Shown: positions 1-19,784 of the stretch, piece by piece
Position numbering within the stretch: the first letter of the stretch is position 1
Layout of the letters: every line of letters starts with the position of its first letter
Source: a virus
Lineage: Duplodnaviria; Heunggongvirae; Uroviricota; Caudoviricetes
Strand: one strand, 5' to 3'
IMG/VR virus record: IMGVR_UViG_2690316049_000007
Span: 1 to 19,784 of that record
Length of the DNA: 19,784 nucleotides
Program-made: the position numbers and the translations under genes
Notes under the pieces: generated by a model
The model's input: only the letters and a program-made list of their open reading frames with translations
Database searches by the model: none
What the model was told of the DNA's origin: nothing

Positions 1-477
1 TCATACCTCAATCTCTCTGACCGTTCCGCCTGCTTCTTTGAATTTTGCAATCAGGCTGTCAGCCTTATGCTCGAACTGACCATAACCAGCCCCCGGAAGT
101 GAAGCCCAGATATTGCTGCAACGGTCGATAGCCTGACGGATATCACCGCGATCAATCATCGGCAAAGCGCCACGCTCTTTAATCTGTTGCAATGCCACAG
201 CGTCCTGGCTTTTCGGAGAGAAGTCTTTCAGGCCAAGCTGCTTGCGGTAGGCATCCCACCAACGGGAAAGAAGCTGGTAACGTCCGGCTGCTGTTGATTT
301 GAGTTTTGGGTTTAGCGTGACAAGTTTGCGAGGGTGATCGGAGTAATCAGTGAATAGCTCTCCGCCAACAATGACGTCATAACCATGATTTCTTGTTTTC
401 TGACGTCCGTTATCAGTTCCCTCTGACCACGCCAGCATATCGAGGAACGCCTTACGTTGATTATTGATTTCCACCAT
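1..477 (-). CDS. R: Phage endolysin, lambda R-type lytic transglycosylase (158 aa)
   Basis: Complete minus-strand ORF. Translation ([27 protein letters not shown]...GGTVREIEV) matches lambda R as I recall it nearly residue for residue. ATG at 477-475, stop at 3-1. Confidence 0.9.
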
Positions 478-784
478 CTTCTACTCCGGCTTTTTTAGCA
501 GCGAAGCGTTTGATAAGCGAACCAATCGAGTCAGTACCGATGTAGCCGATGAACACGCTCGTTATATAAGCGAGATTGCTACTTAGTCCGGCGAAGTCGA
601 GAAGGTCACGAATGAACCAGGCGATAATGGCGCACATCGTTGCGTCGATTACTGTTTTTGTAAACGCACCGCCATTATATCTGCCGCGAAGGTACGCCAT
701 TGCAAACGCAAGGATTGCCCCGATGCCTTGTTCCTTTGCCGCGAGAATGGCGGCTAACAGGTCATGTTTTTCTGGCATCTTCAT
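461..784 (-). CDS. S: Class I holin, lambda S-type (107 aa) with Met1-Lys2-Met3 dual-start motif
   Basis: Translation [32 protein letters not shown]... matches lambda S as recalled. ATGs at 784-782 and 778-776 give the holin/antiholin dual start. The 3' end overlaps the R start. Confidence 0.9.
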
Positions 785-1028
785 GTCTTACCCCCAATAA
801 GGGGATTTGCTCTATTTAATTAGGAATAAGGTCTATTACTGATAGAACAAATCCAGGCTACTGTGTTTAGTAATCAGATTTGTTCGTGACCGATATGCAC
901 GGGCAAAACGGCAGGAGGTTGTTAGCGCGACTTCCTGCCACCCGCTTTCACGAGGTCATGTGTAGAAGGCCGCAGCGTAACTATCACCGATGAATTCATG
1001 ATAGCCAGTGGCTACGACTCAGTTTGGA

Positions 1029-1155
1029 TTGTGGCGGCCGGAATCGAACCGGCTTCCATCGGTGCGCTGCCGATTGCAGTACGCGCGGCGGTCAGCTACA
1101 TGACTAGTATTTTCACTGTCGCCTATCTGCTAGCTCGCCATTGAGCTTCACCACA
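1029..1155 (-). ncRNA. tRNA-like element, non-canonical (T-arm, anticodon-like arm and acceptor/D-arm-like 5' part separated by about 57 nt)
   Basis: Minus strand reads ...ATCGG-CAGCGCA-CCGAT-GGAA-GCCGG-TTCGATT-CCGGC-CGCCACA-A. This gives a canonical T-arm with TTCGATT loop and a 5-bp stem with 7-nt loop before it. A 5' TGTGGTG (1155-1149) can pair with CGCCACA with one G-U, followed by a D-arm-like GCTC-AATGGC-GAGC. The total is about 127 nt, with no encoded CCA and a loop that has A at position 33 and C at 37, so it is not a standard tRNA. Confidence 0.35.
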
Positions 1156-1220
1156 ACGATAAGAGCACTCGGTGCATTTAAGCCAAGCCCCATAAGGGAG
1201 AATGCTCTTACCTGTTGTGC

Positions 1221-1249
1221 AAACAAAAAAAGCCCACAGGAGGTGGGCT
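1221..1249 (-). terminator. Rho-independent terminator, tR'-like, downstream of the late promoter
   Basis: Minus strand AGCCCAC-CTCCT-GTGGGCT followed by TTTTTTTGTTT: 7-bp GC-rich stem, 5-nt loop, U-run. Confidence 0.6.
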
Positions 1250-1290
1250 TGTGATGGTTGCTGAATGCAAAAGCAGCAGCATATGTGAAT

Positions 1291-1320
1291 ATTATGGCTA
1301 AATGGCTAATTGCATGTCAA
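1291..1320 (-). promoter_or_regulatory. Candidate late promoter pR' (-35 TTGACA, 18-bp spacer, -10 CATAAT) overlapping the 3' end of Q
   Basis: Minus strand TTGACA (1320-1315), 18 nt, CATAAT (1296-1291). Sits at the Q stop and about 60 nt upstream of the tR'-like terminator, the expected position for the Q-modified late promoter. Confidence 0.45.
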
Positions 1321-1816
1321 GGCTTTTAACAGCAAGATGCTTAACTTTCTCAACACGTTTACGCATTTTGAAAGCATTTTGCATTGGTTGGTACAAAACA
1401 AATAATGACGCTTTCAGGATGTCGTCAATTTCGTTTCTACAGGTTGCCAGTGAAGGTTTTCTCCATCCCTCGCCACCACGTCCACACATCTTGCGTGGCT
1501 TTGCAGTCGCGTGATAGTAGGATGCAATTGCTCGCTTAGATGAACCATGAGCGTAGTAGCTGAGGAGGATGCCAAAGGCTTTCTTGTCAATGTACATGAC
1601 GGAATCAACGACCTGAGAAATCAACATTCCATCATCATCATTACACATTGGCCTTGTCATAACTCTTCCCGGCTCTACGCTCTCCATGAACTTCGCTATT
1701 ACGCTGCTCATGCGCTTTTCCAGACGACCTGAATAAACCCATGCGCCCCACAGTTCAAGCCAGCCATTCAGCCACTCGTGCTGCTCTTTGGTGAGGTTTA
1801 GTTCTCTTATGCCCAC
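1298..1816 (-). CDS. Q: Late-gene antitermination protein Q (phage 82/21, QuuD-like family), 172 aa, GTG start
   Basis: Position between nin region and lysis genes. Motifs ELWGAW ... CNDDDGML ... LLSYYAHG resemble the Q/QuuD family as recalled (ERWGAW, ICDDDAM, LLVDYYVVG). GTG at 1816 preceded by GGGAGAAGG. Confidence 0.8.
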
Positions 1817-2478
1817 GCGCCTTCTCCCTGTACCTGAATCAATGTGAGGTTTCCGCAGAACACTGCGCCGGTATCGATATACATCTGGTTGGAAAACTTG
1901 AGTGGTTTCACTGCTGGCGTATGACCAAAGATGAACGTGTCCGCGCCTTTGATTTCTTTCACGATCCCGTCTTGTGAGTTGCTGATTCGTTCGCGGTTCC
2001 AGATTACCTGCTGATGATCAACTGGCTTTCCAAACTCGTATTTATCACAAGGATAATCGGCGTGGCAGATGACATATTTTTTACCTTTGCTCACCAGTTC
2101 GATGATTAACGGAAGTTCACCTGCTTTATGGGCAAGAGCTTTAGCCAGAATTTCTTTGTCGTAATCGAGATTAAAGAACCAGCCACCGCCATTAAGCAGC
2201 CAGTGATTGACGTTTCCATGCTCTGATAAGCCATCAATCATCATTTGCTCATGGTTTCCACGTACAGCTCTGAACCAGGGGAATGTGATTAATTCCAGGC
2301 ATTCGACGTTCTCTGTACCGCGATCAACCAAATCGCCCACCGAGATAAGCAGGTCTTTTTTGGTGTCGAATCCTATCGTCTCCAGTTTTTTCATCAGGTT
2401 CGTGTAGCATCCGTGCAGATCGCCAACTACCCAAATATTTCGGTATTTGCTGCCATCAATTCTTTCGTAATAGCGCAT
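1807..2478 (-). CDS. ninI: Ser/Thr protein phosphatase (lambda PPase, NinI/orf221 homolog)
   Basis: Translation from [25 protein letters not shown]... with GDLVDRG and GNHE metallophosphatase motifs matches lambda phosphatase as recalled. Start placed at ATG 2478 (GGAG upstream) rather than the longer ORF start at 2553. Confidence 0.9.
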
Positions 2479-2662
2479 CTCTTTCACTCCATCCGCGATG
2501 AACCATGAGAACGTCGTTGACGATGGCGTGCATTTTCCCGTCTTTATCATCAACGTATTTTCTGACCGTACCGCGACTACATTTCAGTCTGCGTGCTACT
2601 TCTGTCTGATTTCCGTATGCTTCAACGAGCATGTCTGGAATGGTTTTTACTGAGAACGTCAT
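2456..2662 (-). CDS. ninH: NinH (lambda orf68 homolog), 68 aa
   Basis: Size and position match lambda NinH. ATGA overlap with ninG stop at 2662-2659. Confidence 0.8.
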
Positions 2663-3270
2663 GCGGCCTCACTTCTGCTATTTCGCAGGTCTTTGAGTTT
2701 CTGTTGGTACTCTGCCTTGATCGCCTTGCACTCTTCGATAGTCCAGCGATGGCGGTTATGGTTTGATTCGATTTCGTCTACTGCTTCCTGCCCGATGCGG
2801 CTAATCAGTTCGACGCGATACGGAACGAGATTTCCGCTTTTGTGCTGGTTGCACACCACGCATTGCTTGTGAATATTGCGTTCATCAAATCGGAGTTGAG
2901 GTGCCGCAGCAGTTGTCCGGTAATGCCCGGCATCCCACTGAGCAGACGTGAGCGTTCCGCACGAGATACATGGTAAGTCGCGGTCTCTTTCTCTGATGAA
3001 GGCGTTTACGGCTTGTTGGGCTTGTTTAATCCAGTAACTGCGGGGCTTTAAGGCGAGTTTTCGAATCTTAAGTTTATCTTTCTGTTTCTGCTCCTCTCGT
3101 CGTCGTTTCTTCTCTGCTGCCTTTTCCGCTTTTTCGCGTTCTTTGCTTCGTCGTTCGAGTGCTATCTTGGTTCCACACTCTGGAGAGCACCACCACTGAT
3201 TAGCGAATGCAGGGTGAAACCATTCCCGACATTCTTCGTTTTTACATCGTCTTCGCGCTAGTTTGGCCAT
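2659..3270 (-). CDS. ninG: NinG / Rap recombination-associated endonuclease (203 aa)
   Basis: Cys-rich N-terminus ([10 protein letters not shown]...CSPECG), basic coiled segment and Cys/His-rich C-terminus, size about 204 aa, position between ninF and ninH as in lambda. Confidence 0.85.
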
Positions 3271-3439
3271 CGTCTTCTTCCTCGTACATTGAACTATTCG
3301 GATCGCTCATCAGTTCTGCGCAGCAGTGCTCACACACGTGAACTTCCAGCACATGCAGCTTCTGACCGCAGTTAGCGCACGTTAAAGCTCGCTCGACGCT
3401 TTCTTTCTGGTATTGAAGGGATTGGGATGGGCTAAGCAT
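3242..3439 (-). CDS. ninF: NinF-like small Cys-rich protein (65 aa)
   Basis: [46 protein letters not shown]... matches lambda NinF as recalled. Overlaps the ninG start. Confidence 0.8.
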
Positions 3440-3815
3440 TATTGGCGTCCTGCATCATGAGAAAGACAATCATGGCGGCACGGAGTGGATTGTCATATGC
3501 GACACCAACATTCGGTCCGGCATCATCAAACAAGTCCCTTGCGTTGTCTGTAGCGCACGGCATTGAGGGATTGTCTAAAATTATGCTGATGTTGTTTTCA
3601 GTGATAATCGGCCATGCGTCTGCTGGGTTTGCGCATGGGTTAAAGGATCCGCGCTCAACCTCTACTTCAACTGCGTCTCCGTTTACAATGTCTCCCTCAA
3701 ATGAGATAAACACCATCGCGCCATTCTCACCTTCTTTGTAATCCGGTGATCCGTTATGAATGGCTTCGAATACCGCCACGTTAATTTCAAAATCACTTAA
3801 CTGTGAATAATCCAT
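3432..3815 (-). CDS. Hypothetical nin-region protein (about 127 aa; ORF extends to 3857 with a GTG)
   Basis: Long minus-strand ORF in gene-dense nin region. Most plausible start is ATG 3815 (MDYSQLSDF...) with GAGG 8 nt upstream. Acidic protein, no motif recognised. Confidence 0.6.
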   Translation of the reverse strand: MDYSQLSDFEINVAVFEAIHNGSPDYKEGENGAMVFISFEGDIVNGDAVEVEVERGSFNPCANPADAWPIITENNISIILDNPSMPCATDNARDLFDDAGPNVGVAYDNPLRAAMIVFLMMQDANNA

Positions 3816-3960
3816 TGTCATTTCCTCGCACGATGTCTTAGCCACCGGATATCCCACAGGTGAGCCGTGTAGTTGAAGGTTTTTACGTCAGATTCTTTTG
3901 GGATTGGCTTTGGTTTATTTCTGGAGCGTTTCGTTGGAAGGTATTTGCAGTTTTCGCAGA

Positions 3961-4135
3961 TTATGTCGGTAATACTTCGTCGCTGTCTCGCCACACGTCC
4001 TCCTTTTCCTGCGGTAGTGGTAACACCCCTGTTGGTGTTCTTTCACACCGGAGACACCATCGATTCCAGTAAGGTTGTCCTGGTCGAAAGCGATCGTCTT
4101 CCTTTCGCTCTCCACATCGATAACAGTGCTTCATG
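3961..4135 (-). CDS. Small zinc-ribbon protein at the NinE position (57 aa)
   Basis: ATG 4135-4133 overlaps the methyltransferase stop (ATGA). [32 protein letters not shown] carries two CxxC pairs. A competing overlapping frame (3915-4115) exists. Confidence 0.45.
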
Positions 4136-4721
4136 CGATCACCATTTTGCATGGTTTAATCGCCATGCCTGGAGCCAGTTCAAAATCGGAGTCGCACTGA
4201 TTTCCCCACATATCCCACCCGGTCACTTTGTCGCGGCTAAATAACTCACAGCGCGGCACGTCGCCAAGCAACTTAGCTAACATGTCTCTTACGATCGGTG
4301 GTTTTGCACTGTGCTCCATTCTCGGTGCGGTAAAGTGCTGGCATATTGAAGCGTCCATTCTCTCAGGTAACCGCCCTCGAACGGCAAACAAGCAATCCTC
4401 GCTATTTGCCCGGGTCATATGCCCCATTCCGATCGCACTGTTGCCTTTGTGCTTATTGGTTTTGTGCCAAGTAAAGCCTTTCATAGTCATCAACCTGAAT
4501 CCCCACGCCTCAATTACCTTTAGCGCTTCGGCTGGCTGTGTCGGCACCCACCACATCGCTAACAAGCAAGATTCTGGATCCGCTAAATCCCATACTGGCA
4601 GTCGGCAAATGTCCTGAACATTCATAACATCGTATTTATGTCCAGCACCGCGATTGCCATCGTTGGCTTTGTCGCGATATTGCCAAGGCGGATCTGCGTA
4701 AATAAGTTGGTATTTGTTCAT
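4131..4721 (-). CDS. DNA N6-adenine methyltransferase, MT-A70 family (DPPW motif), 196 aa
   Basis: [15 protein letters not shown]... shows the DPPW catalytic motif near the N-terminus, typical of MT-A70-like orphan phage methyltransferases. ATGA overlap with ninB stop. Confidence 0.85.
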
Positions 4722-5158
4722 TCAGTTTTATCTCCCCATCTCGCTTTCCACTCCAGAGCCAGTCGCGCTTCGTCTGACCACTTAACGCCACGCTCTGTAC
4801 CGAATGCCTGTATAAGCTCTAATAGCTCCGCAAATTCGCCTACACGCATCCTGCTGGTTGACTGGCCTATTACCACAAAGCCATTCCCGGCAAGGTTAGG
4901 AACAACATCCTGCTGCTTTAATGCTGCGGTAAACACACACTTCCAGCTTTCTGCATCCAGCCAGCGACCATGCCATTCAACCTGACGAGAGACGTCACCT
5001 AAGCAGGCCCATAGCTTCCTGTTTTGGTCTAAGCTGCGGTTGCGTTCCTGAATGGTTACTACGATTGGTTTGGTTGGGTCTGGAAGAATTTGCTGTACCG
5101 CGTGAATAGCGTTTTGCTGATGTGCTGGAGATCGAATTTCAAAGGTTAGTTTTTTCAT
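4718..5158 (-). CDS. ninB: NinB (recombination mediator, lambda orf146 homolog)
   Basis: From MKKLTFEIRSPAHQQNAIHAVQQILPDPTKPIVVTIQERNRSLDQNRKLWACLGDVS... matches lambda NinB as recalled. Start at ATG 5158 with GGAGAGGGAAG upstream; the ORF-track start at 5176 is probably too long. Confidence 0.9.
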   Translation of the reverse strand: MKKLTFEIRSPAHQQNAIHAVQQILPDPTKPIVVTIQERNRSLDQNRKLWACLGDVSRQVEWHGRWLDAESWKCVFTAALKQQDVVPNLAGNGFVVIGQSTSRMRVGEFAELLELIQAFGTERGVKWSDEARLALEWKARWGDKTE

Positions 5159-5173
5159 GACTTCCCTCTCCCC

Positions 5174-5206
5174 CAAATAAAAAGGCCTGCGATTACCAGC
5201 AGGCCT
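5174..5206 (-). terminator. Rho-independent terminator between helicase and ninB (tR2-like position)
   Basis: Minus strand AGGCCTGC-TGGTAATC-GCAGGCCT followed by TTTTTATTT: 8-bp stem. Confidence 0.5.
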
Positions 5207-5234
5207 GTTATTAGCTCAGTGATGTAGATGGTCA

Positions 5235-7700
5235 TCAGAATCCTCCTTTCTTCTTGGACTGCGGTTCCTCGCGTTCACGGCGGCGCATTTCAGCAGACTG
5301 TTGGTCTGTGTCATAAATAGCGCCATTTGCCTGAATGCAATACACCGTGCCGGTATTGCCATGACGATTGAGACGAAGGATTAGTTCGGTTTCACCAGGT
5401 GGAACACTGTCATCAAAAGCACCTTCACGATGGATCCCCACCCAATAATCGCAATCCTGTTCAATCTGCCCTGTATCTCGTGAGTCACTTGGTAATGGGC
5501 GTTTATTGGTTCGGCTTTCCAGTGCGCGGTTAAGCTGCGTCAGAAGCACAACAACGCAATCAAGCTCTTTGGCAAGGTTCTTCAGTCCTTTGGTGATCAT
5601 GCCGTAAGCAAGGTCGTTGCGATCGGCCTTCTCAGCGGTCATTAGTGTCAGGTAATCGACCAGAATCATGCCAACACATCCTTTTTCTCGCTTGATTCGA
5701 CGGCTTTCGCTGACGATTTGAGCCAGAGATAATCCCGGCGTGTCGTCGATGTAAAGCATGTCGATTTCACTCAAGCGATTAGCTGTTTCGATCGCCCTGT
5801 TGAAGTCACCATCGTAATCACCCTGATAGCCGTCATCAGCGTCATTTGTCGCCGGAAGGTAAAAAATATTCGGGTTAACACCTGACTTCTGTCCTACCAG
5901 TTTTTCCAGTATCTGGTCACCGGGCATTTCAAGGCTGAACATCAGAGCGGGCTTTTTCTCATGCACTGCGCAGTTGATTGCCATCTGGCTGTATAGCGTG
6001 GTGTTGTGGGTTAGAATGTATCCGTCAGTTGCATACAAATGTCTCTCGTGGGATACCATGATGCAAATGCACTCTTCACGTCCAATATACTCAACCGACG
6101 TGATAACAGGCGCACTTGTTTTGATGCGTTTTGCAGTGAATTTTTGCTTCAGGCGTGGAGATTTTATGTGTGATAGAACCTCATCAGGCAACCTGATTGC
6201 GCAAATATGGGCATCCATACCTTTGCGCATTTCTCCCTTATAACTGAATTTCGGCTCCTGTTTGGTTGTCATACGACACACGCCACCAAGAGAATGCACC
6301 AGCCGCTTTACACCATCTGACAGGAACTTGCTTGCCGAGCTAAAGCGCAGGGCATTATTTCCTTCAACCCAACCATCGGTTTCAAGTAATCCGCATAGAA
6401 CATCAATACGAGTTTGCTTATCAGCAGAAAAAATAATATCCGGGATAATTTTAATCTCTGACATCCGGCCGTAGATACCAAGCCGTTGCATAACCCGCGT
6501 AAGAGATAATTTGCGGCTAAACTTGTGAGATAGGGAGTAATCGCAGCCAGAAACATGCCTGACTTCAATATCGTCACCCACTTCAGATCTTACTCGCTCA
6601 ATGATGTATGGTTCCGTCATGCTGATTCGTGGCGTACCTGCAAGATTTCCATCACCAAGTAACGCACCTAACAGCCATGGGCTAATCCCTAAATCAACAG
6701 GCAATCCGAAGTCACCGCTAATACCAGGAACATGAATGCGGCTTTGATAGCGAACGCATTCCATCATGTCCCGTAGGCGGCAGGTGTCTACAACATCAAC
6801 GCCACCGGTAATACGGTTACTATGAATTTCCCACAAATGATCATCCGCGCAATCAACGGTTCTTCCGTCAGAGAACGTAACTCGGTAAATATCTCGCTCC
6901 CCTTGAGGAAAAACTCCAGACACGAATGATGGTTGTCCATCCACTGATGCTAGGGAATCTCCAACACATACGTCACGAAATGTTGTCCATGAACCATCAG
7001 CAAGCAAAATGCGTGAATTAAGCGGTTGCGCTTTCCCCATCTTAGGGCGAGCGCCAATGACAAACAGAGATCCTTTCACCAGACCTTTCGGTGACAGCAT
7101 CCTGTCCAGCGATGGGATCCCTGTGCTCATTCCTCGTTGTTCGCCTGACGGGTCAAATCGCTTCTCAAGGTCGCTAACCCAGTCTTCCATGACCTCGCCA
7201 AATGAGCGAAGGCCGCGACGCGATCCGGTTTTTGCATGGTCTGTCAGTTGCGTGAAAATCGCCTGAATAGCTTCGTACTTCTGCGTTGCAGTCATTCCGT
7301 TGCGGGAATAGAGCAATTCCGTCGCTTCAGTCATGCGGTTGATGGCGTAGCGTTCCATTGCGGTTTCACGAACCTGCATTGCATAGGCAACGATGTTTGC
7401 TGCGCTTGGCGTGTTCTTTGCGATCTCAGCGATATAAGCAAAACCGCCAACAGACGCCGTTAACGATTTGCGATCCAGTTCATCGAAAAGCGTCAGGCCA
7501 TCTACTGGCTTTTGCTCCCGGTGCATTCTGGTTATTTCTTCGAAAAGGATTTTGTGTGGTCGGCTGTAAAATGAATCAGGCTTCAGCATCGCCAGAACTT
7601 TCTGGACGCGCTCACTGCTGTCATCATCCAGAAGCAATCCACCAATCACCGCCTGCTCTGCCTCGATGCTATGGGGCGGCGCATAAAAATTATCGGTCAT
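5235..7700 (-). CDS. Replicative DNA helicase, DnaB family (P22 gene 12-like), interrupted in-frame by an intein; precursor about 821 aa
   Basis: N-terminal PPHSIEAEQAVIGGLLLD, Walker A GARPKMGK then TTLYSQ, Walker B ILVDYLTLM, and LTQLNR...DSRDTGQIEQDCD are DnaB motifs. Walker A is split by 343 extra residues. Start placed at ATG 7700 (GAGGGTG upstream); the ORF track uses GTG 7715. Confidence 0.9.
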   Translation of the reverse strand: MTDNFYAPPHSIEAEQAVIGGLLLDDDSSERVQKVLAMLKPDSFYSRPHKILFEEITRMHREQKPVDGLTLFDELDRKSLTASVGGFAYIAEIAKNTPSAANIVAYAMQVRETAMERYAINRMTEATELLYSRNGMTATQKYEAIQAIFTQLTDHAKTGSRRGLRSFGEVMEDWVSDLEKRFDPSGEQRGMSTGIPSLDRMLSPKGLVKGSLFVIGARPKMGKAQPLNSRILLADGSWTTFRDVCVGDSLASVDGQPSFVSGVFPQGERDIYRVTFSDGRTVDCADDHLWEIHSNRITGGVDVVDTCRLRDMMECVRYQSRIHVPGISGDFGLPVDLGISPWLLGALLGDGNLAGTPRISMTEPYIIERVRSEVGDDIEVRHVSGCDYSLSHKFSRKLSLTRVMQRLGIYGRMSEIKIIPDIIFSADKQTRIDVLCGLLETDGWVEGNNALRFSSASKFLSDGVKRLVHSLGGVCRMTTKQEPKFSYKGEMRKGMDAHICAIRLPDEVLSHIKSPRLKQKFTAKRIKTSAPVITSVEYIGREECICIMVSHERHLYATDGYILTHNTTLYSQMAINCAVHEKKPALMFSLEMPGDQILEKLVGQKSGVNPNIFYLPATNDADDGYQGDYDGDFNRAIETANRLSEIDMLYIDDTPGLSLAQIVSESRRIKREKGCVGMILVDYLTLMTAEKADRNDLAYGMITKGLKNLAKELDCVVVLLTQLNRALESRTNKRPLPSDSRDTGQIEQDCDYWVGIHREGAFDDSVPPGETELILRLNRHGNTGTVYCIQANGAIYDTDQQSAEMRRREREEPQSKKKGGF
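6003..7031 (-). mobile_element. Intein (343 codons) in the helicase P-loop, with LAGLIDADG homing-endonuclease domain
   Basis: Insert lies between GARPKMGK (K codon 7034-7032) and TTLYSQ (T codon 6002-6000). It ends with LTHN before +1 Thr. Two LAGLIDADG-type motifs: LLGALLGDGNL (6674-6642) and VLCGLLETDGW (6401-6369). Block B-like DDHLW and block F-like EECICIMV are present. Confidence 0.8.
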
Positions 7701-14607: not shown

Positions 14608-15087
14608 ATGAAAGTCTGCTCAAGATGCCATCAACAGAAGGAAGAAAGGGACTTTCAAATCAGAAGAGCATCCAGAGATGGATTAACTGCCGCTTGCCGG
14701 GCTTGCCTGGCTGAATACGACAAAGAACGCGCTGGATTGCCACATCGAGTATCAGCAAGGAGAGAATATCAATCATCGGAACGCGGAAGAGAACGGTGTA
14801 ACGCAGCCAAAAAGCGGTTCATTCAGAGCAACCCATGGAAAAGAAAAGCCCACATCATTGTGGGTAATTTTTTGCGCGACGGTAAGCTAATCCGACCACC
14901 ACAATGTGAGTGCTGCGGATCAGAATGTAAACCACAGGCGCACCACTGCGACTACAGCAAACCAACCGATGTGATGTGGCTCTGCAAGTCATGTCATGTC
15001 GAGTGGCACAAACATAACAAACCTATCTACCCAGACGAGGAACCAGTAACTCTCCCCTTCCCTCGTCACGCTATTCACGCAATTTAA
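14608..15087 (+). CDS. HNH-like zinc-finger protein (putative HNH endonuclease), 159 aa
   Basis: AGGAG RBS. N-terminal CxxC...CxxC, C-terminal CECCGSECKPQAHHCDYSKPTDVMWLCKSCHVEWH, which fits the CxxC...HH...CxxCH HNH architecture. Confidence 0.65.
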   Translation: MKVCSRCHQQKEERDFQIRRASRDGLTAACRACLAEYDKERAGLPHRVSARREYQSSERGRERCNAAKKRFIQSNPWKRKAHIIVGNFLRDGKLIRPPQCECCGSECKPQAHHCDYSKPTDVMWLCKSCHVEWHKHNKPIYPDEEPVTLPFPRHAIHAI

Positions 15088-15095
15088 GGACTTAC

Positions 15096-15644
15096 ATGAA
15101 TCACTTAATGGTTGACCTTGAAACAATGGGCAACGGGCCATATGCGCCAGTTATTTCTATTGGTGCGGTATTCTTTGACCCGAATACCGGAGAAACAGGA
15201 GAAGAGTTCTCGGTAAATATCTCGCTTGAGTCATCAATGCGATATCGGGCGCGTCCTGACGCTTCAACGATTTTATGGTGGATGGAACAGAGTGAAGAAG
15301 CCAGAAAATCGCTAACCAGCAACACTCAAGAGCTTTCAACGGCTCTTTCATGGTTATCTGAATTCATCATAAAGAACGCTAACCACAAATTCGTTCAGGT
15401 TTGGGGGAATGGAGCATCATTTGACTGCGTTATTCTCCGAAACAGTTATTCACTGACAGGGCAGCCAGTTCCGTGGCAGTGGTGGAATGACCGCGACGTA
15501 AGAACAATCGTCGAACTTGGGAAGGTAATAGGATTCGACCCTAAGCGAGATATGCCATTCAAAGGAACTCGCCACAACGCGCTTGATGATGCCATTCACC
15601 AAGCCAAATACGTTTCAGCGATCTGGAAAAAGTTAGCTAAATAA
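15096..15644 (+). CDS. DEDDh-family 3'-5' exonuclease (DnaQ-like), 182 aa
   Basis: MVDLETMG (Exo I motif), GNGASFDCVIL (Exo II-like), TRHNALDDAIHQA (Exo III with His), typical of phage 3'-5' exonucleases. Confidence 0.85.
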   Translation: MNHLMVDLETMGNGPYAPVISIGAVFFDPNTGETGEEFSVNISLESSMRYRARPDASTILWWMEQSEEARKSLTSNTQELSTALSWLSEFIIKNANHKFVQVWGNGASFDCVILRNSYSLTGQPVPWQWWNDRDVRTIVELGKVIGFDPKRDMPFKGTRHNALDDAIHQAKYVSAIWKKLAK

Positions 15645-15660
15645 TCAACAGGAGAAAACC

Positions 15661-15957
15661 ATGCCAGCGCCTCTATATGGTGCGGACGACCCGCGCCGCT
15701 GTTCCGGCAATTCCATATCGGAGGTGCTGGAAAATATCAAGAATAATCTCGACGCGTTTCTTGCTCTGCCACCGGAAACAAAAGAAGAACGGAAGTACCG
15801 ACGCGATATACAACTCGCAGAAAAACAGGAAAAAGACCGAATAAACGAAACATCAATCCGACCATTCCGCAAATCCATATATACCCACTTCCCTGAATAT
15901 ATCGACCCGCGCCTGCGTAATTACCGCTCACGCTATGGCGCTATCAGTAATGACTGA
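15661..15957 (+). CDS. Hypothetical protein (98 aa)
   Basis: ORF with AGGAGA RBS. No recognised motif. Confidence 0.6.
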
Positions 15958-15967
15958 GGAATTTACC

Positions 15968-16135
15968 ATGAGAGGACTTGCATACAATCCCGGCATTCTT
16001 CCGGCAGAAATGATTATTCGCCAACGCGTAAAGCCAATGCCATCGAGAGAGGAATTGCTTAAAAGGAAGAGTTTCGGTTCTGTTAATGACAACAAATATC
16101 TGAATGCGATGTGGCGTAAAGGAGTCAAGCAGTGA
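15968..16135 (+). CDS. Small hypothetical protein (55 aa)
   Basis: ATG 15968 with GAGGAA RBS. Stop overlaps the GTG of the next gene. Confidence 0.4.
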
Positions 16136-16569
16136 GCAAGATTGATTATCAAAAGCTTCGTGAAATCGCTGAAAAAACAAAAATTGCTGGTGAAGCACCT
16201 GTAATGCCTTTCGATCAGCGAATTAATGCGCTTAACGATTTTATGAAGCACTTTTCGCCAGATATCGCGCTGGCACTGCTGGATGAACGGGAAAGGAACC
16301 AGCAATACATCAAACTCCGCGATCAGGAGAACGAGGAAATTGCGCTAACGGTAGGGAAACTGCGTGTTGAGCTGGAAGCCGCAGAGAAGCGCATTGCTGA
16401 GCTGCAGTTGCGGGAGGTTGTGCTTCCGCAATGCTATAGCATGTTGCATCGCGTCGATTTTGACGAGCCTTACCACACTGAAATGGTTTACAGGCAGCAT
16501 CAGGTTCTTGAGGCACTGCACAACGCTGGAATAAACGTCACCGAAGCAGGTAAAGGAGAGGCATCATGA
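16132..16569 (+). CDS. Ead/Ea22-like family protein (145 aa), GTG start
   Basis: GTG with AAGGAG RBS. N-terminal [17 protein letters not shown]... and central coiled region resemble the Ead/Ea22-like proteins of P22-like phage early-left regions as recalled. Confidence 0.65.
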
Positions 16570-17120
16570 GCACTATTCCCAAAGAACGTCTGGAACAATT
16601 AGCATCTGGAAACGCATGGTATTGCGTTCAAGATGACGAAGCGGCTGAGCTGGCGCGTATCGCGCTGGCATCGCTGGAAGCAAAACCAGTTGCTTATATT
16701 TTCAAACATCCGGCCGGGAAATTATTCTGGGCTTTGACGGATGAAAGCAATAAAGATCAATCGGACGTTATTCCTGTTTATGCTGCCTCACCTGCACCAA
16801 TAGCGTCGGAGGCCATTGAAAACGCTATTGAATACATCCGCAGTATCGCTTTTCACATCGATGAAGACGATTACCACGGCAAACATATTGCGTATTTCAT
16901 GCGACAAGCATTGGCCTGGCTGGAAGGGCATTCATGCAGTGATGACAGTCAGGGCAAATCCGATAATTCACCATTGCCGCGCTACCAGGTGATCGAATTA
17001 ACAATGCTGGTTAAACAATTGGTCAGCCAACTGAAAAAAGCAAAACCTGATTGCAAATTACCTGATAGGGCGATGGATTATCTTTTGCGAAACGAACTGG
17101 TAAGTGCGGAGGGGGTTTAA
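16566..17120 (+). CDS. Hypothetical protein (184 aa)
   Basis: ATGA-coupled to upstream gene, AAGGAGAGG RBS. No recognised motif. Confidence 0.7.
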   Translation: MSTIPKERLEQLASGNAWYCVQDDEAAELARIALASLEAKPVAYIFKHPAGKLFWALTDESNKDQSDVIPVYAASPAPIASEAIENAIEYIRSIAFHIDEDDYHGKHIAYFMRQALAWLEGHSCSDDSQGKSDNSPLPRYQVIELTMLVKQLVSQLKKAKPDCKLPDRAMDYLLRNELVSAEGV

Positions 17121-17122
17121 CG

Positions 17123-17701
17123 ATGACCATTTCTACAAAAAAGCCTCTTTATGCTGAGGTTCACAATGTTCCTGATGATTATGAGTTCACTGACGAGGAA
17201 CTAAACAGAATTATTGCAGGTGATATGTTCACTCCTCGTCAGGACGCAATAATGGCACGGGAGATACAGAAACTCCGCGCCGCCATGCTTCATGGTGCAG
17301 AACCTGTAAAACAGACTTACAAGTTGCCTCCCCTGCCATCCAGCGAAGTAAACGAAGCGGCATGGAGATTACACAACATGCTTACTGAATGCATCCCTCT
17401 AAATGGTCATCAGTTCAACAATCTGAAGGGTTGGTTCTATGAGGCGTTAAAGGTCGCAATGCGCAACTATCCGGTAAATCCGGATGGTTGGATAAGCTGT
17501 AGTGAGCGAATGCCGGATACCAAAACAGCCGTTCTTGTTGCCAAGGAGTTTGATAGGAAAGGTGACTGGCGAATGAAATGGGCGACTTACATCCCGGGGC
17601 ATCCTGACGCTAATGATGGGTGGATCATTCCTGGGGCGTCGTGGAAACCGTCACACTGGATGCCGCTACCAGAACCGCCGCAGGAGGTTAACCGTGGCTA
17701 A
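17123..17701 (+). CDS. DUF551-like domain protein (192 aa)
   Basis: C-terminal ...GWIIPGASWKPSHWMPLPEPP fits the HWMPLPEPP-type signature I associate with the phage DUF551 domain. GGAGGGGG RBS. Confidence 0.7.
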   Translation: MTISTKKPLYAEVHNVPDDYEFTDEELNRIIAGDMFTPRQDAIMAREIQKLRAAMLHGAEPVKQTYKLPPLPSSEVNEAAWRLHNMLTECIPLNGHQFNNLKGWFYEALKVAMRNYPVNPDGWISCSERMPDTKTAVLVAKEFDRKGDWRMKWATYIPGHPDANDGWIIPGASWKPSHWMPLPEPPQEVNRG

Positions 17702-17733
17702 CCTGCAACTTGCCGTTAAAGGTGAATAACAAT

Positions 17734-17759
17734 CCTCGCACTCGCGGGGATTTCTTTTA
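17734..17759 (+). terminator. Candidate rho-independent terminator
   Basis: CCTCGC-ACTC-GCGGGG (one G-U) followed by ATTTCTTTTAT. Confidence 0.4.
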
Positions 17760-17800
17760 TCTGAACTCGCTACGGCGGGTTTTGTTTTATGGAGATGATT

Positions 17801-18100
17801 ATGGCCTGTTCAACATTCAACCATCTAACGTTACAGAAATACCAGACAGACCCTGAAGATTTATGCTCACTGTGTGGCGGAAATCATGGTAAAGCCGCCA
17901 TGATCGAATGTAAGGACAAAATCCACATTTGCCTTAATTGCGTTGATGTCCTCGTTGATATCAAAAATGAGAGAGAAGATAAAAAGCGTAGCGAGGCTGT
18001 TCGCGCCTTAGATTCATGGATGAGGGATGGATATAGTGCCGCGCAAATTTATGACTTAGCAATATCAAAAGGCGAAATACCAGGAGTGCGTATCGAATAA
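17801..18100 (+). CDS. Hypothetical Cys-rich protein (about 100 aa)
   Basis: ATG 17801 with GGAG 6 nt upstream. CSLCGG...CLNC suggests a zinc ribbon. Confidence 0.6.
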   Translation: MACSTFNHLTLQKYQTDPEDLCSLCGGNHGKAAMIECKDKIHICLNCVDVLVDIKNEREDKKRSEAVRALDSWMRDGYSAAQIYDLAISKGEIPGVRIE

Positions 18101-18142
18101 GACGTAACCAACATTCGAATTGAAGAACTGAAAGAACACCAA

Positions 18143-18165
18143 GCCGCCTGATGGCGGTTTTTTAT
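18143..18165 (+). terminator. Rho-independent terminator
   Basis: CCGCC-TGAT-GGCGG followed by TTTTTTTATTT. Confidence 0.65.
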
Positions 18166-18208
18166 TTCCTGATTTGCAGGTTCGATTCCCTATTCGGAGA
18201 TAGCACTC

Positions 18209-18409
18209 ATGCAACACGAACTACAACCTGATTCACTGGTTGATTTGAAATTCATCATGGCTGATACTGGCTTCGGTAAAACCTTCATCTACGACCGGAT
18301 TAAGTCCGGCGACCTGCCTAAAGCCAAAGTTATCCACGGGCGAGCAAGATGGTTATATCGTGACCATTGTGAATTCAAAAATAAGCTCTTAAGCCGCGCC
18401 AATGGGTAA
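18209..18409 (+). CDS. AlpA/Xis-like small HTH DNA-binding protein (putative excisionase or regulator), 66 aa
   Basis: LKFIMADTGFGKTFIYDRIKSGDLPKAKVIHGRARWLYRD fits the AlpA/excisionase HTH pattern. Lies at the distal end of the leftward operon where xis is expected. Confidence 0.7.
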   Translation: MQHELQPDSLVDLKFIMADTGFGKTFIYDRIKSGDLPKAKVIHGRARWLYRDHCEFKNKLLSRANG

Positions 18410-18885
18410 AATAGCGGGTAAAATATTTCTCACATCTAAAAAACACCATTCCAATCAATCCCCTGCCTCGTCAAGTAGATGTCTGCAGGGGACACCAGAT
18501 ACCCTTCAAACGAAATCTACCTTCACCCCGTAAAAGATGGGTTTGGCAGCACACTTGCCTTATATCTACTCATTTTTACTGCAACAGGTTGAAATCTCAG
18601 CACTGTCAGAAAGCGCTGATGACTAAACAGCCCTGGGCCGGGCGATGTAACCATCACACAGAATCCTGATAGCGAAATATGGCGTGACTCGATACTTCAC
18701 TCCGCAATGCATTCCTTGATGAATTCGCAGGACCGTGATACACGGGACAGGTCACTGAATGACGACAATGTCCTGGAAATCAGCGAACCGCGCATCTGAA
18801 GTACATTTGAGCGACTGTACCAGAACATGAATGAGGCGTTTGGATTAGGCGATTATTAGCAGGGCTAAGCATTTTACTATTATTA

Positions 18886-18929
18886 TTTTCCGGTTGAGGG
18901 ATATAGAGCTATCGACAACAACCGGAAAA
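18886..18929. repeat. Perfect 11-bp inverted repeat (TTTTCCGGTTG / CAACCGGAAAA) with 22-bp spacer, 10 bp downstream of the permease stop
   Basis: Arms 18886-18896 and 18919-18929 are exact reverse complements. No adjacent U-run on either strand. Confidence 0.6.
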
Positions 18930-18938
18930 AGTTTACGT

Positions 18939-19784
18939 CTATATTGCTGAAGGTACAGGCGTTTCCATAACTATTTGCTCGCGTTTTTTACTCAAGAAGA
19001 AAATGCCAAATAGCAACATCAGGCAGACAATACCCGAAATTGCGAAGAAAACTGTCTGGTAGCCTGCGTGGTCAAAGAGTATCCCAGTCGGCGTTGAAAG
19101 CAGCACAATCCCAAGCGAACTGGCAATTTGAAAACCAATCAGAAAGATCGTCGACGACAGGCGCTTATCAAAATTTGCCACGCTGTATTTGAAGACGGAT
19201 ATGACACAAAGTGGAACCTCAATAGCATGTAACAGCTTCACTAATGAAATAATCCAGGGGTTAACGAACAGCGCGCAGGAAAGGATACGCAACGCCATAA
19301 TCACAACACCGATAAGTAATGCATTTTTTGGCCCTACCCGATTCACAAAGAAAGGAATAATCGCCATGCATAGCGCTTCGAGTACCACCTGGAATGAGTT
19401 GAGATAACCATACAGGCGCGTTCCTACATCGTGTGATTCGAATAAACCTGCATAAAAGACAGGAAAAAGTTGTTGATCAAAAATGTTATAGAAAGACCAC
19501 GTCCCCACAATAAATATGACGAAAACCCAGAAGTTTCGATCCTTGAAAACTGCGATAAAATCCTCTTTTTTTACCCCTCCCGCATCCGCCGCTACGCACT
19601 GGTGATCCTTATCTTTAAAACACATGTTGATCATCATAAATACAGCGCCAAATAGCGAGACCAACCAGAAGTTGATATGGGGACTGATACTAAAAAATAT
19701 GCCGGCAAAGAACGCGCCAATAGCATAGCCAAAAGATCCCCAGGCGCGCGCTGTTCCATATTCGAAATGAAAATTTCGCGCCAT
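18939..19784 (-). CDS. LacY-family (oligosaccharide:H+ symporter) MFS permease, C-terminal 281 codons; 5' end lies beyond the window
   Basis: Hydrophobic multi-helix protein with FNIFDQQLFPVFY and GPKNALLIG segments paralleling LacY (YDVFDQQFANFF, GGKNALLLAG) as recalled, but divergent. ORF runs to the window edge. Confidence 0.85.
   Translation of the reverse strand: MARNFHFEYGTARAWGSFGYAIGAFFAGIFFSISPHINFWLVSLFGAVFMMINMCFKDKDHQCVAADAGGVKKEDFIAVFKDRNFWVFVIFIVGTWSFYNIFDQQLFPVFYAGLFESHDVGTRLYGYLNSFQVVLEALCMAIIPFFVNRVGPKNALLIGVVIMALRILSCALFVNPWIISLVKLLHAIEVPLCVISVFKYSVANFDKRLSSTIFLIGFQIASSLGIVLLSTPTGILFDHAGYQTVFFAISGIVCLMLLFGIFFLSKKREQIVMETPVPSAI

Follow-up and report, generated by a model that had tools for sequence, protein, structure and literature searches.

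A probable full-length class 3 intein at the P-loop of a DnaB-family helicase in a P22/lambda-like prophage of Escherichia coli

We analyzed a window of 19,784 nucleotides (nt), positions 1 to 19,784 of the IMG/VR virus record IMGVR_UViG_2690316049_000007 (Caudoviricetes), in which a DnaB-family helicase gene on the minus strand carries a 1029-nt in-frame insert. A first-pass annotation, made from the DNA letters without database searches, had read this insert as a class 3 intein, that is, one lacking an N-terminal nucleophile. Our analysis supports this interpretation, which appears right in substance: the insert is very probably a class 3 intein of full length, in which a Hint domain for splicing is combined with a LAGLIDADG homing endonuclease; it occupies the DnaB 'b' site of a prophage helicase and would be spliced by the class 3 route described below. 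Although misannotated and apparently undescribed, the intein is ordinary for the well-described family to which it belongs.

The only long open reading frame (ORF) over the insert in the ORF list of the window is 5235..7715 (-), which encodes 826 amino acids (aa) from an upstream GTG. Residue numbers given here are counted from this GTG at 7715; as the annotation of Shigella phage Sf6 and that of the NCBI Prokaryotic Genome Annotation Pipeline (PGAP) both start the gene at the ATG at 7700 (Met6), annotated residue numbers are lower by 5. Pfam places a DnaB N-terminal domain at residues 13-117 and a DnaB C-terminal ATPase domain in two parts, the bigger of which spans residues 572-792, with weak matches to LAGLIDADG_3 and Hom_end_hint between the DnaB parts. 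NCBIfam recognizes the helicase as phage_DnaB TIGR03600 (558 bits, cut-off 499), and here too the match is in two stretches. The flanking host sequences (exteins) are 99% identical in nucleotide sequence to Sf6 gene 44 and VT2-Sakai P, and they are 95-99% identical to the helicase gene in 87 phage records that include Sf6 gene 44, VT2-Sakai P and HK629; the middle 1029 nt were found in none of these 87 records. The gene is the Sf6 gp44/VT2-Sakai "P"-type DnaB-family helicase of a P22/lambda-like E. coli prophage.

The exact ends of the insert were fixed by comparison with intein-less alleles. Relative to Sf6 gene 44, the window gene contains a single gap-free, in-frame insert of 1029 nt: Sf6 reads GGG AAA ACG ACG CTA (GKTTL) and the window reads GGG AAA|GCG CAA ... 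CAC AAC|ACC ACG CTA. This comparison leaves a one-codon ambiguity (GCG/ACG versus ACC/ACG), which is removed by a second pair of alleles. The intein-less E. coli ET896 reads GGT AAA|ACC ACG CTG and the intein-bearing ET846 has 1029 nt between AAA and ACC, so that the gap is set exactly at GCG...AAC. The intein is thus Ala229 to Asn571, with Walker A Lys228 at position -1 and Walker A Thr572 at position +1 (GARPKMGK, residues 221-228, followed by the intein and then TTLYSQ). The first-pass annotation had placed the intein at 6003-7031, which is exactly 343 codons, and had it begin at Ala229 without a Cys or Ser start; the intein-less Sf6 and ET896 alleles confirm both the span and the first residue, and our translation of 5235..7715 returns GARPKMGK, Ala229, DDHLW, EECICIMV and LTHN at the residues it gave. 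Its caution that the N-terminal junction could be off by a few residues no longer applies, as two independent allele pairs fix Lys228|Ala229 and the C-terminal junction as well. The insertion point, between GK and S/T of Walker A, is that of site-b (P-loop) DnaB inteins; DnaB is the commonest bacterial intein host and its P-loop a known insertion point (Novikova et al. 2016, PMC4760082).

Two further ideas about these alleles were examined and rejected. ET846 and ET896 are not an isogenic pair, as 57 sites distinguish their helicase genes and the 4 kb upstream are merely 82% identical. Likewise, the ACC codon at Thr+1 is not a mark of co-conversion or of endonuclease immunity, as the intein-less ET896 also has ACC.

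Table 1. Features of the helicase gene and its intein in the window, with residue states among the relatives described in the text. Intein residues are numbered from Ala1.
Feature	Positions	Strand	Description	State among relatives
Helicase precursor gene	5235..7700	-	821 aa from ATG at 7700; single unbroken ORF; stop 5235-5237	
N-extein	7032..7700	-	DnaB N-terminal domain and start of ATPase domain, ending VIGARPKMGK (Walker A through Lys)	
C-extein	5235..6002	-	Begins Thr572 (+1, ACC), TTLYSQMAIN...; stop codon included	
Intein	6003..7031	-	343 codons, Ala229-Asn571 (intein Ala1-Asn343); 1029-nt gap against intein-less alleles	Commonest junction MGK|T; most of best 150 at same P-loop site
Block A	6990..7031	-	AQPLNSRILLADGS; position 1 is Ala229 (GCG, 7029-7031), a non-nucleophile	Position 1: Ala 120, Pro 17, Glu 11, Asp 5, Ser or Cys ~7 (of 176)
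Block B	6825..6866	-	Ends VDCADDHLWEIH; DDHLW is residues 291-295; B:7 is Ala	
Cys289 (B:6)	6842-6844	-		
His293 (B:10)	6837-6839	-	Intein His65	His 179/179
Trp295 (B:12)	6831-6833	-	Intein Trp67	Trp 178/179
LAGLIDADG homing endonuclease domain	6132..6716	-	About intein residues 106-300; Pfam LAGLIDADG_3	
LAGLIDADG motif LLGALLGDG	6648-6674	-		
LAGLIDADG motif LCGLLETDG	6372-6398	-		
Block F	6027..6074	-	ECICIMVSHERHLYAT; EECICIMV is residues 547-554	
Cys549 (F:2)	6069-6071	-		
Cys551 (F:4)	6063-6065	-	Intein Cys323; predicted initiating nucleophile	Cys 176/177
Block G	6000..6023	-	GYILTHN|T; LTHN is residues 568-571	
Thr569 (G:5)	6009-6011	-	Intein Thr341	Thr 177/177
His570 (G:6)		-	Intein His342	His 176/177
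Asn571 (G:7)	6003-6005	-	Intein Asn343	Asn 177/177
Thr572 (+1)		-	First C-extein residue	Thr 156, Ser 20, Cys 1

The insert is in frame, lies at a conserved site, is absent from close homologues, contains blocks A, B, F and G, and is modeled with a Hint fold. The possibility that it is instead an unrelated in-frame domain or a free-standing endonuclease gene would find a footing in the profile searches, where the Pfam Hint and intein models stay below their gathering thresholds (Hom_end_hint reaches 19.5-20.8 bits where 32.1 are required) and the helicase precursor is matched by none of the NCBIfam intein models. This possibility is effectively refuted, and we give it a negligible chance: the splicing blocks are all present and end in His-Asn followed by Thr, solved inteins are matched at E values of 1e-8 to 1e-10 (phmmer), and the top Foldseek matches are all intein-endonucleases. 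Furthermore, a HMMER search of 1.84 billion cluster representatives returned 15,603 relatives with E<=1e-3, of which 2,794 reach E<=1e-30; among the 150 best, the majority occupy this P-loop site.

An intein belongs to class 3 if its first residue is not a nucleophile, if it has Trp at B:12, Cys at F:4 and Thr at G:5 (the WCT triplet), and if the +1 residue is either Thr or Ser (PMC2807308, Tori et al. 2010; PMC3196547). The window intein has Ala1, His at B:10 and Trp at B:12, Cys at F:4, Thr-His-Asn from G:5 and Thr at +1, so the Trp/Cys/Thr pattern recognized in the first reading of the sequence is complete, and it aligns with that of characterized class 3 inteins. The numbering of His65 and Trp67 is the same as in the class 3 inteins MP-Be and Msm DnaBi1 (PMC2807308, PMC6195587). 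In a MAFFT alignment of 14 full-length relatives, which included the intein of phage Min27 and the MP-Be prototype extracted from the Bethlehem genome, the HxW motif, the F:4 Cys and THN|T are invariant down to 25% identity. Residue counts (Table 1) were taken from the intein domains in the best 150 of the 15,603 relatives, where all 103 complete intein domains have the full class 3 pattern. As the pattern is kept across relatives, it is a family signature and not a coincidence; judged by these comparisons, DnaB-like helicases host a very large family of P-loop inteins, and the window intein is typical of it.

Among characterized inteins, MP-Be of mycobacteriophage Bethlehem, the class 3 prototype (PMC2807308), is, like the window intein, full-length, phage-borne and equipped with a LAGLIDADG endonuclease (341 aa compared to 343 aa). 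The two can be aligned over their full length (25% identity, E 5e-19), with MP-Be Cys320, Thr339 and Asn341 at the positions of Cys323, Thr341 and Asn343 of the window intein, the same His65 and Trp67, and Thr at +1 in both. They differ at position 1, which is Pro in MP-Be and Ala here, and in their host site, as the MP-Be junction is VSQDQ|P...HN|TKNTF and, unlike that of the window intein, has no GK|T P-loop. The first-pass annotation had described the prototype as a mycobacteriophage DnaB intein at the helicase P-loop, which proved mistaken. The MP-Be host gene (locus L005, 7260-9971) has a TerL_nuclease domain and lies directly upstream of the portal gene, and is thus a terminase large subunit gene; the intein of Bethlehem has been named TerL1-c and placed in a poorly conserved helix (Kelley et al. 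2016, PMC5050341), and the annotated DnaB-like gene of Bethlehem, gp62, contains no intein. Tori et al. (2010, PMC2807308) did note that most class 3 inteins interrupt the ATPase P-loop of a helicase-like protein, and in view of this preference the window case is expected rather than surprising.

The same insertion point, Walker A Lys|Ser/Thr of a DnaB-family helicase, is occupied by the class 3 inteins Msm DnaBi1 of M. smegmatis (6bs8, PMC6195587) and MchDnaB1 of M. chimaera (6rix/6riy, PMC7664689), which share with the window intein Ala1, His65, Trp67, the F:4 Cys, Thr-His-Asn and a hydroxyl nucleophile at +1. These two are mini-inteins of 139 and 145 aa without an endonuclease, in an actinobacterial chromosomal dnaB, whereas the window intein has 343 aa, an apparently intact LAGLIDADG domain and an Enterobacteriaceae prophage helicase as its host. 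Msm DnaBi1 further differs in having Asp at B:7 (DxxH) where the window intein has Ala, Ser at +1 where the window intein has Thr, and a redox partner, Cys48, that aligns with Ile in the window intein, so that this partner is absent.

The nearest relative found in a sequenced phage is the intein in gene P of Stx2a-converting phages (Min27, vB_EcoP_24B and others), which is 48% identical over its full length. Like the window intein, it has Ala1, DHLW, C(L)CIMV and THN|T and lies in the P-loop of a helicase of a lambdoid E. coli phage; its junction is NGHGK|A...HN|TEV, and its host protein is a Toprim primase-helicase fusion, not a DnaB protein with N- and C-terminal domains. The Min27 gene P is found at L004 1388-3970, the intein is also in 24B and about 50 records of Stx2a-converting phages, and the host proteins are annotated just as 'replication protein P' or 'DNA primase/helicase'. 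The Min27 intein is presumably the InBase entry EP-Min27 Primase. A search of the literature for a helicase intein of E. coli, lambdoid or Stx phages, which did not extend to the extended class 3 listings, returned nothing specific.

Among class 1 inteins, gp41-1 from a cyanophage-like DnaB-family helicase (6qaz) reads EEHLF, ELIDIEV and ILTHN where the window intein reads DDHLW, EECICIMV and ILTHN, and so shares the G:5 Thr. It is a mini/split intein with Cys1, Phe at B:12, Asp at F:4 and the canonical class 1 mechanism. PI-SceI has the same two-domain architecture as the window intein and is its best overall fold match (TMq, a template-modeling (TM) score, of 0.75), but is a class 1 intein (Cys1) in the eukaryotic host VMA1, and its sequence is about 15% identical. 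Class 3 inteins have been treated as a single monophyletic clade (Tori and Perler 2011, cited in PMC3196547). The window intein aligns end to end with MP-Be, yet the class 1 gp41-1 is also a detectable sequence relative.

An AlphaFold2 model of the intein, built on a 22-sequence alignment, has a mean predicted local distance difference test score (pLDDT) of 91.4 and a predicted TM-score (pTM) of 0.91. In Foldseek searches, the best matches in the Protein Data Bank (PDB) were PI-SceI, the Tli and Pho VMA inteins and PI-PfuI, and the middle domain resembled I-DmoI. Among mini-inteins, target-normalized TM-scores were highest for the class 3 structures of Msm DnaBi1 (6bs8_B, 0.83) and MchDnaB1 (6riy/6rix, 0.79/0.78) and lower for NpuDnaB (0.70), SspDnaB (0.64-0.66) and Mxe GyrA (0.54). 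The best natural PDB sequence matches of the mini-intein query were again these class 3 inteins, with 6bs8 (E 4e-8) and 6rix (E 2e-7) ahead of the class 1 gp41-1 (9e-7). The intein is predicted from this model to have a PI-SceI-like architecture of a Hint splicing domain and a LAGLIDADG endonuclease. The endonuclease domain contains two acidic LAGLIDADG motifs, a KxIP block D with its Lys, and a fold of the alpha-beta-beta-alpha-beta-beta-alpha type; K194, P197, D219 and G220 are invariant among relatives, and the acidic residues are kept in both motifs.

By homology to MP-Be, Dra Snf2 and Msm DnaBi1 (PMC2807308, PMC3196547, PMC6195587), we infer how the intein would be spliced. The helicase would be made as an 821-aa precursor whose P-loop is split by 343 residues and which, as the P-loop is interrupted, should be unable to bind ATP properly before splicing. 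In the first step, the thiol of Cys551 would attack the Lys228-Ala229 peptide bond to form a block F thioester branched intermediate, with His293 activating the bond, Trp295 packing on His293 and Thr569 adjacent. The N-extein would then pass to the Thr572 hydroxyl to give the standard branched intermediate, cyclization of Asn571, aided by His570, would free the intein, and an O-to-N acyl shift would create the Lys228-Thr572 bond and restore GARPKMGKTT. The splice-junction peptide is predicted to be ...MGK-TTLYSQMAINCAVHEK. In homing, the putative endonuclease would cut the intein-less P-loop coding sequence (AAGATGGGGAAA|ACGACGCTATAC), and repair would copy the intein in.

The first-pass annotation had named both block F cysteines, Cys551 and Cys549, as targets for mutagenesis. 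Cys551 holds the predicted role of initiating nucleophile: it aligns with Cys118 of Msm DnaBi1, Cys320 of MP-Be and Asp107 of gp41-1, which was engineered to Cys in 6riz. The position of Cys549, F:2, varies among relatives (A, C, T or V). Position B:6, that of Cys289, is Cys in 110 of 179 relatives, many of which also have a Cys at B:7. Cys289 and Cys549 are extra cysteines near the catalytic center, and redox or metal control of splicing is possible.

We also considered splicing by a route other than class 3, in which Thr572 attacks the amide directly, as in the class 2 KlbA inteins, or Cys549 acts as the internal nucleophile. Class 2 inteins generally have Asp at F:4 and Cys at +1. The window intein has a complete WCT triplet with Cys at F:4, Thr at +1 and a DnaB-family host, which does not fit class 2. 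Although Ala1 is also a hallmark of class 2 KlbA inteins (PMC2807308), class 2 inteins lack the WCT triplet and are so far known from KlbA genes only (PMC3196547). As for Cys549, the two block F cysteines are two residues apart and on the same face of the strand, but it is Cys551 that is nearly invariant and that coincides in the alignments with the residues proven to be nucleophiles in MP-Be and Msm DnaBi1, while most relatives have A, T or V at the Cys549 position and 42 of 176 have Cys there. We therefore regard either of these routes as highly improbable.

Several points weigh against the reading of the insert as a class 3 intein that splices as proposed. Ala at B:7 is a minority state (5 of 178 relatives), and Msm DnaBi1 has at this position an Asp with a proposed positioning role (PMC6195587); mutation of the B:7 Ser of MP-Be did not appreciably inhibit splicing (PMC2807308). 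The WCT triplet is necessary, not sufficient, as grafting it together with a C1A substitution onto gp41-1 gave cleavage and not splicing (PMC7664689). Arsp-FB24 Arth_1007, a class-3-like intein from the remnant of a prophage, has become a dead pseudogene, although it differs in lacking the F:4 Cys and the B:10 His (PMC3196547). Lastly, the synonymous divergence (dS) in the comparison on which our estimates of selection are based is ~1.1, close to saturation, which makes the ratios of nonsynonymous to synonymous divergence (dN/dS) approximate, though they are far below 1.

The precedent of Arth_1007 bears directly on the alternative that the window intein has decayed and no longer splices, surviving because the prophage helicase is dispensable to the host. 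Prophage genes do lie outside host selection, and among relatives there is at least one truncated case: protein P0002 of another genome is a deletion chimera that ends inside the intein. In this 565-aa protein, the helicase N-extein and 110 residues from the start of the intein (99% identical) run in frame into a PF11134 phage-stabilization protein, probably through a deletion inside a related prophage. A further point for decay is the RefSeq annotation: in every genome looked at, RefSeq/PGAP presents the intein-bearing helicase as two 'incomplete' pseudogene halves, for N-terminal and C-terminal domain proteins, a pattern seen at 5235-7700 (-) in the window and in loci L002, L006, L007, L008 and L010, with the 1029 intein nt left unannotated. 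As the halves flank exactly these 1029 nt and no NCBIfam intein model detects the intein, the pseudogene call is an artefact of the undetected intein.

Further evidence argues against decay. The frame is open and all catalytic residues are retained in 17 of 17 copies (5 from E. coli genomes and 12 from IMG/VR contigs). Compared with an IMG/VR variant (L021; 81% nucleotide and 87% aa identity), the approximate dN/dS (Nei-Gojobori) is 0.063 for the whole intein; taken separately, the Hint part has 0.046 and the endonuclease part has 0.078, and both parts thus appear to be under purifying selection. Together with the recent move of the intein into a helicase allele of only ~64% identity (below), the low dN/dS points to a working, recently mobile element. 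Given these data, we consider a decayed, non-splicing intein to be very unlikely.

Evidence for mobility comes from the distribution of the intein. At an identity of at least 99.5% it is present in 18 of 5426 complete E. coli genomes, of which 389 have the Sf6-type helicase allele. In E. coli ET791 and ET846, 1025 of 1029 intein nt are identical to the window copy, whereas the N-exteins are merely 62% and the C-exteins 66% identical. The stretch of near-identity to the ET791 copy extends 12 nt upstream and 8 nt downstream of the intein, and its ends delimit the mobile unit independently of the junctions described above. The copies in this second allele (L007 8338-10764, L010 4001-6427, and the IMG/VR contigs L017 and L019, which also pair the intein with the divergent helicase allele) lie at the same GK|TT site, and the intein copy there shows 4 nt differences, two of them nonsynonymous (S26P and C84S). 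The second allele was found in 9 E. coli genomes and is intein-less in 7 of the 9. The prophages around the intein copies differ in their repressors, recombination modules and nin regions. This pattern suggests that one element recently homed into a divergent target, and the pair of ~64%-identical helicase alleles would be a clean natural record of recent horizontal transfer. In the ET846 genome (NZ_CP100895.1) the intein query matches two places, and a second intein-bearing prophage or a fragment of one may be present.

At the protein level, the 90%-identity cluster that contains the precursor has 449 members, including proteins from Salmonella enterica and Shigella boydii, and the full-length members listed are all named simply "helicase DnaB"; an identical 821-aa protein in nr has the same name. 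At the DNA level, the intein was found in none of 50,697 phage records, and when GTDB species-representative genomes were scanned for the intein, no relative turned up.

We further considered a role for the intein in the control of prophage replication, as a post-translational switch that works conditionally. In such a scheme, Cys551 would be reversibly blocked, either by oxidation to a disulfide with Cys549 or the conserved Cys289, or by binding of Zn2+. The M. smegmatis class 3 intein DnaBi1 is redox- and zinc-sensitive (PMC6195587) and offers a parallel. We regard such a switch as unlikely; if it were true, the redox or metal state of the host would gate helicase maturation and, with it, lytic replication after induction.

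Class 3 inteins at the P-loops of phage-derived helicases have been described since 2010, and the window intein leaves the understanding of this class unchanged. For annotation, it means that an intact replication gene of these prophages is scored as broken by RefSeq/PGAP and carries merely the name "helicase DnaB" in GenBank. As a putatively active full-length class 3 intein with an endonuclease, native to lambdoid/P22-like prophages of E. coli, Salmonella and Shigella, it would provide a convenient in vivo setting for the study of splicing and homing, with the intein-less Sf6 and VT2-Sakai carrying a 99%-identical target gene.

Elsewhere in the window, an O-like gene at 7690..8580 (-) contains two clusters of three 11-nt direct repeats of TGGACAACCGT, at 8100-8140 and 8166-8206. 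The clusters of TGGACAACCGT are 66 nt apart, and their position matches that of the iteron-type origin annotated inside Sf6 gene 43. At its far end (18209-19784), the prophage adjoins a gene for a LacY-type sucrose permease (cscB-like, 18939..19784, -), in which PGAP notes an internal stop. A TorI-like excisionase gene lies at 18209..18409 (+), and the stretch between it and the sucrose permease gene holds no integrase gene.

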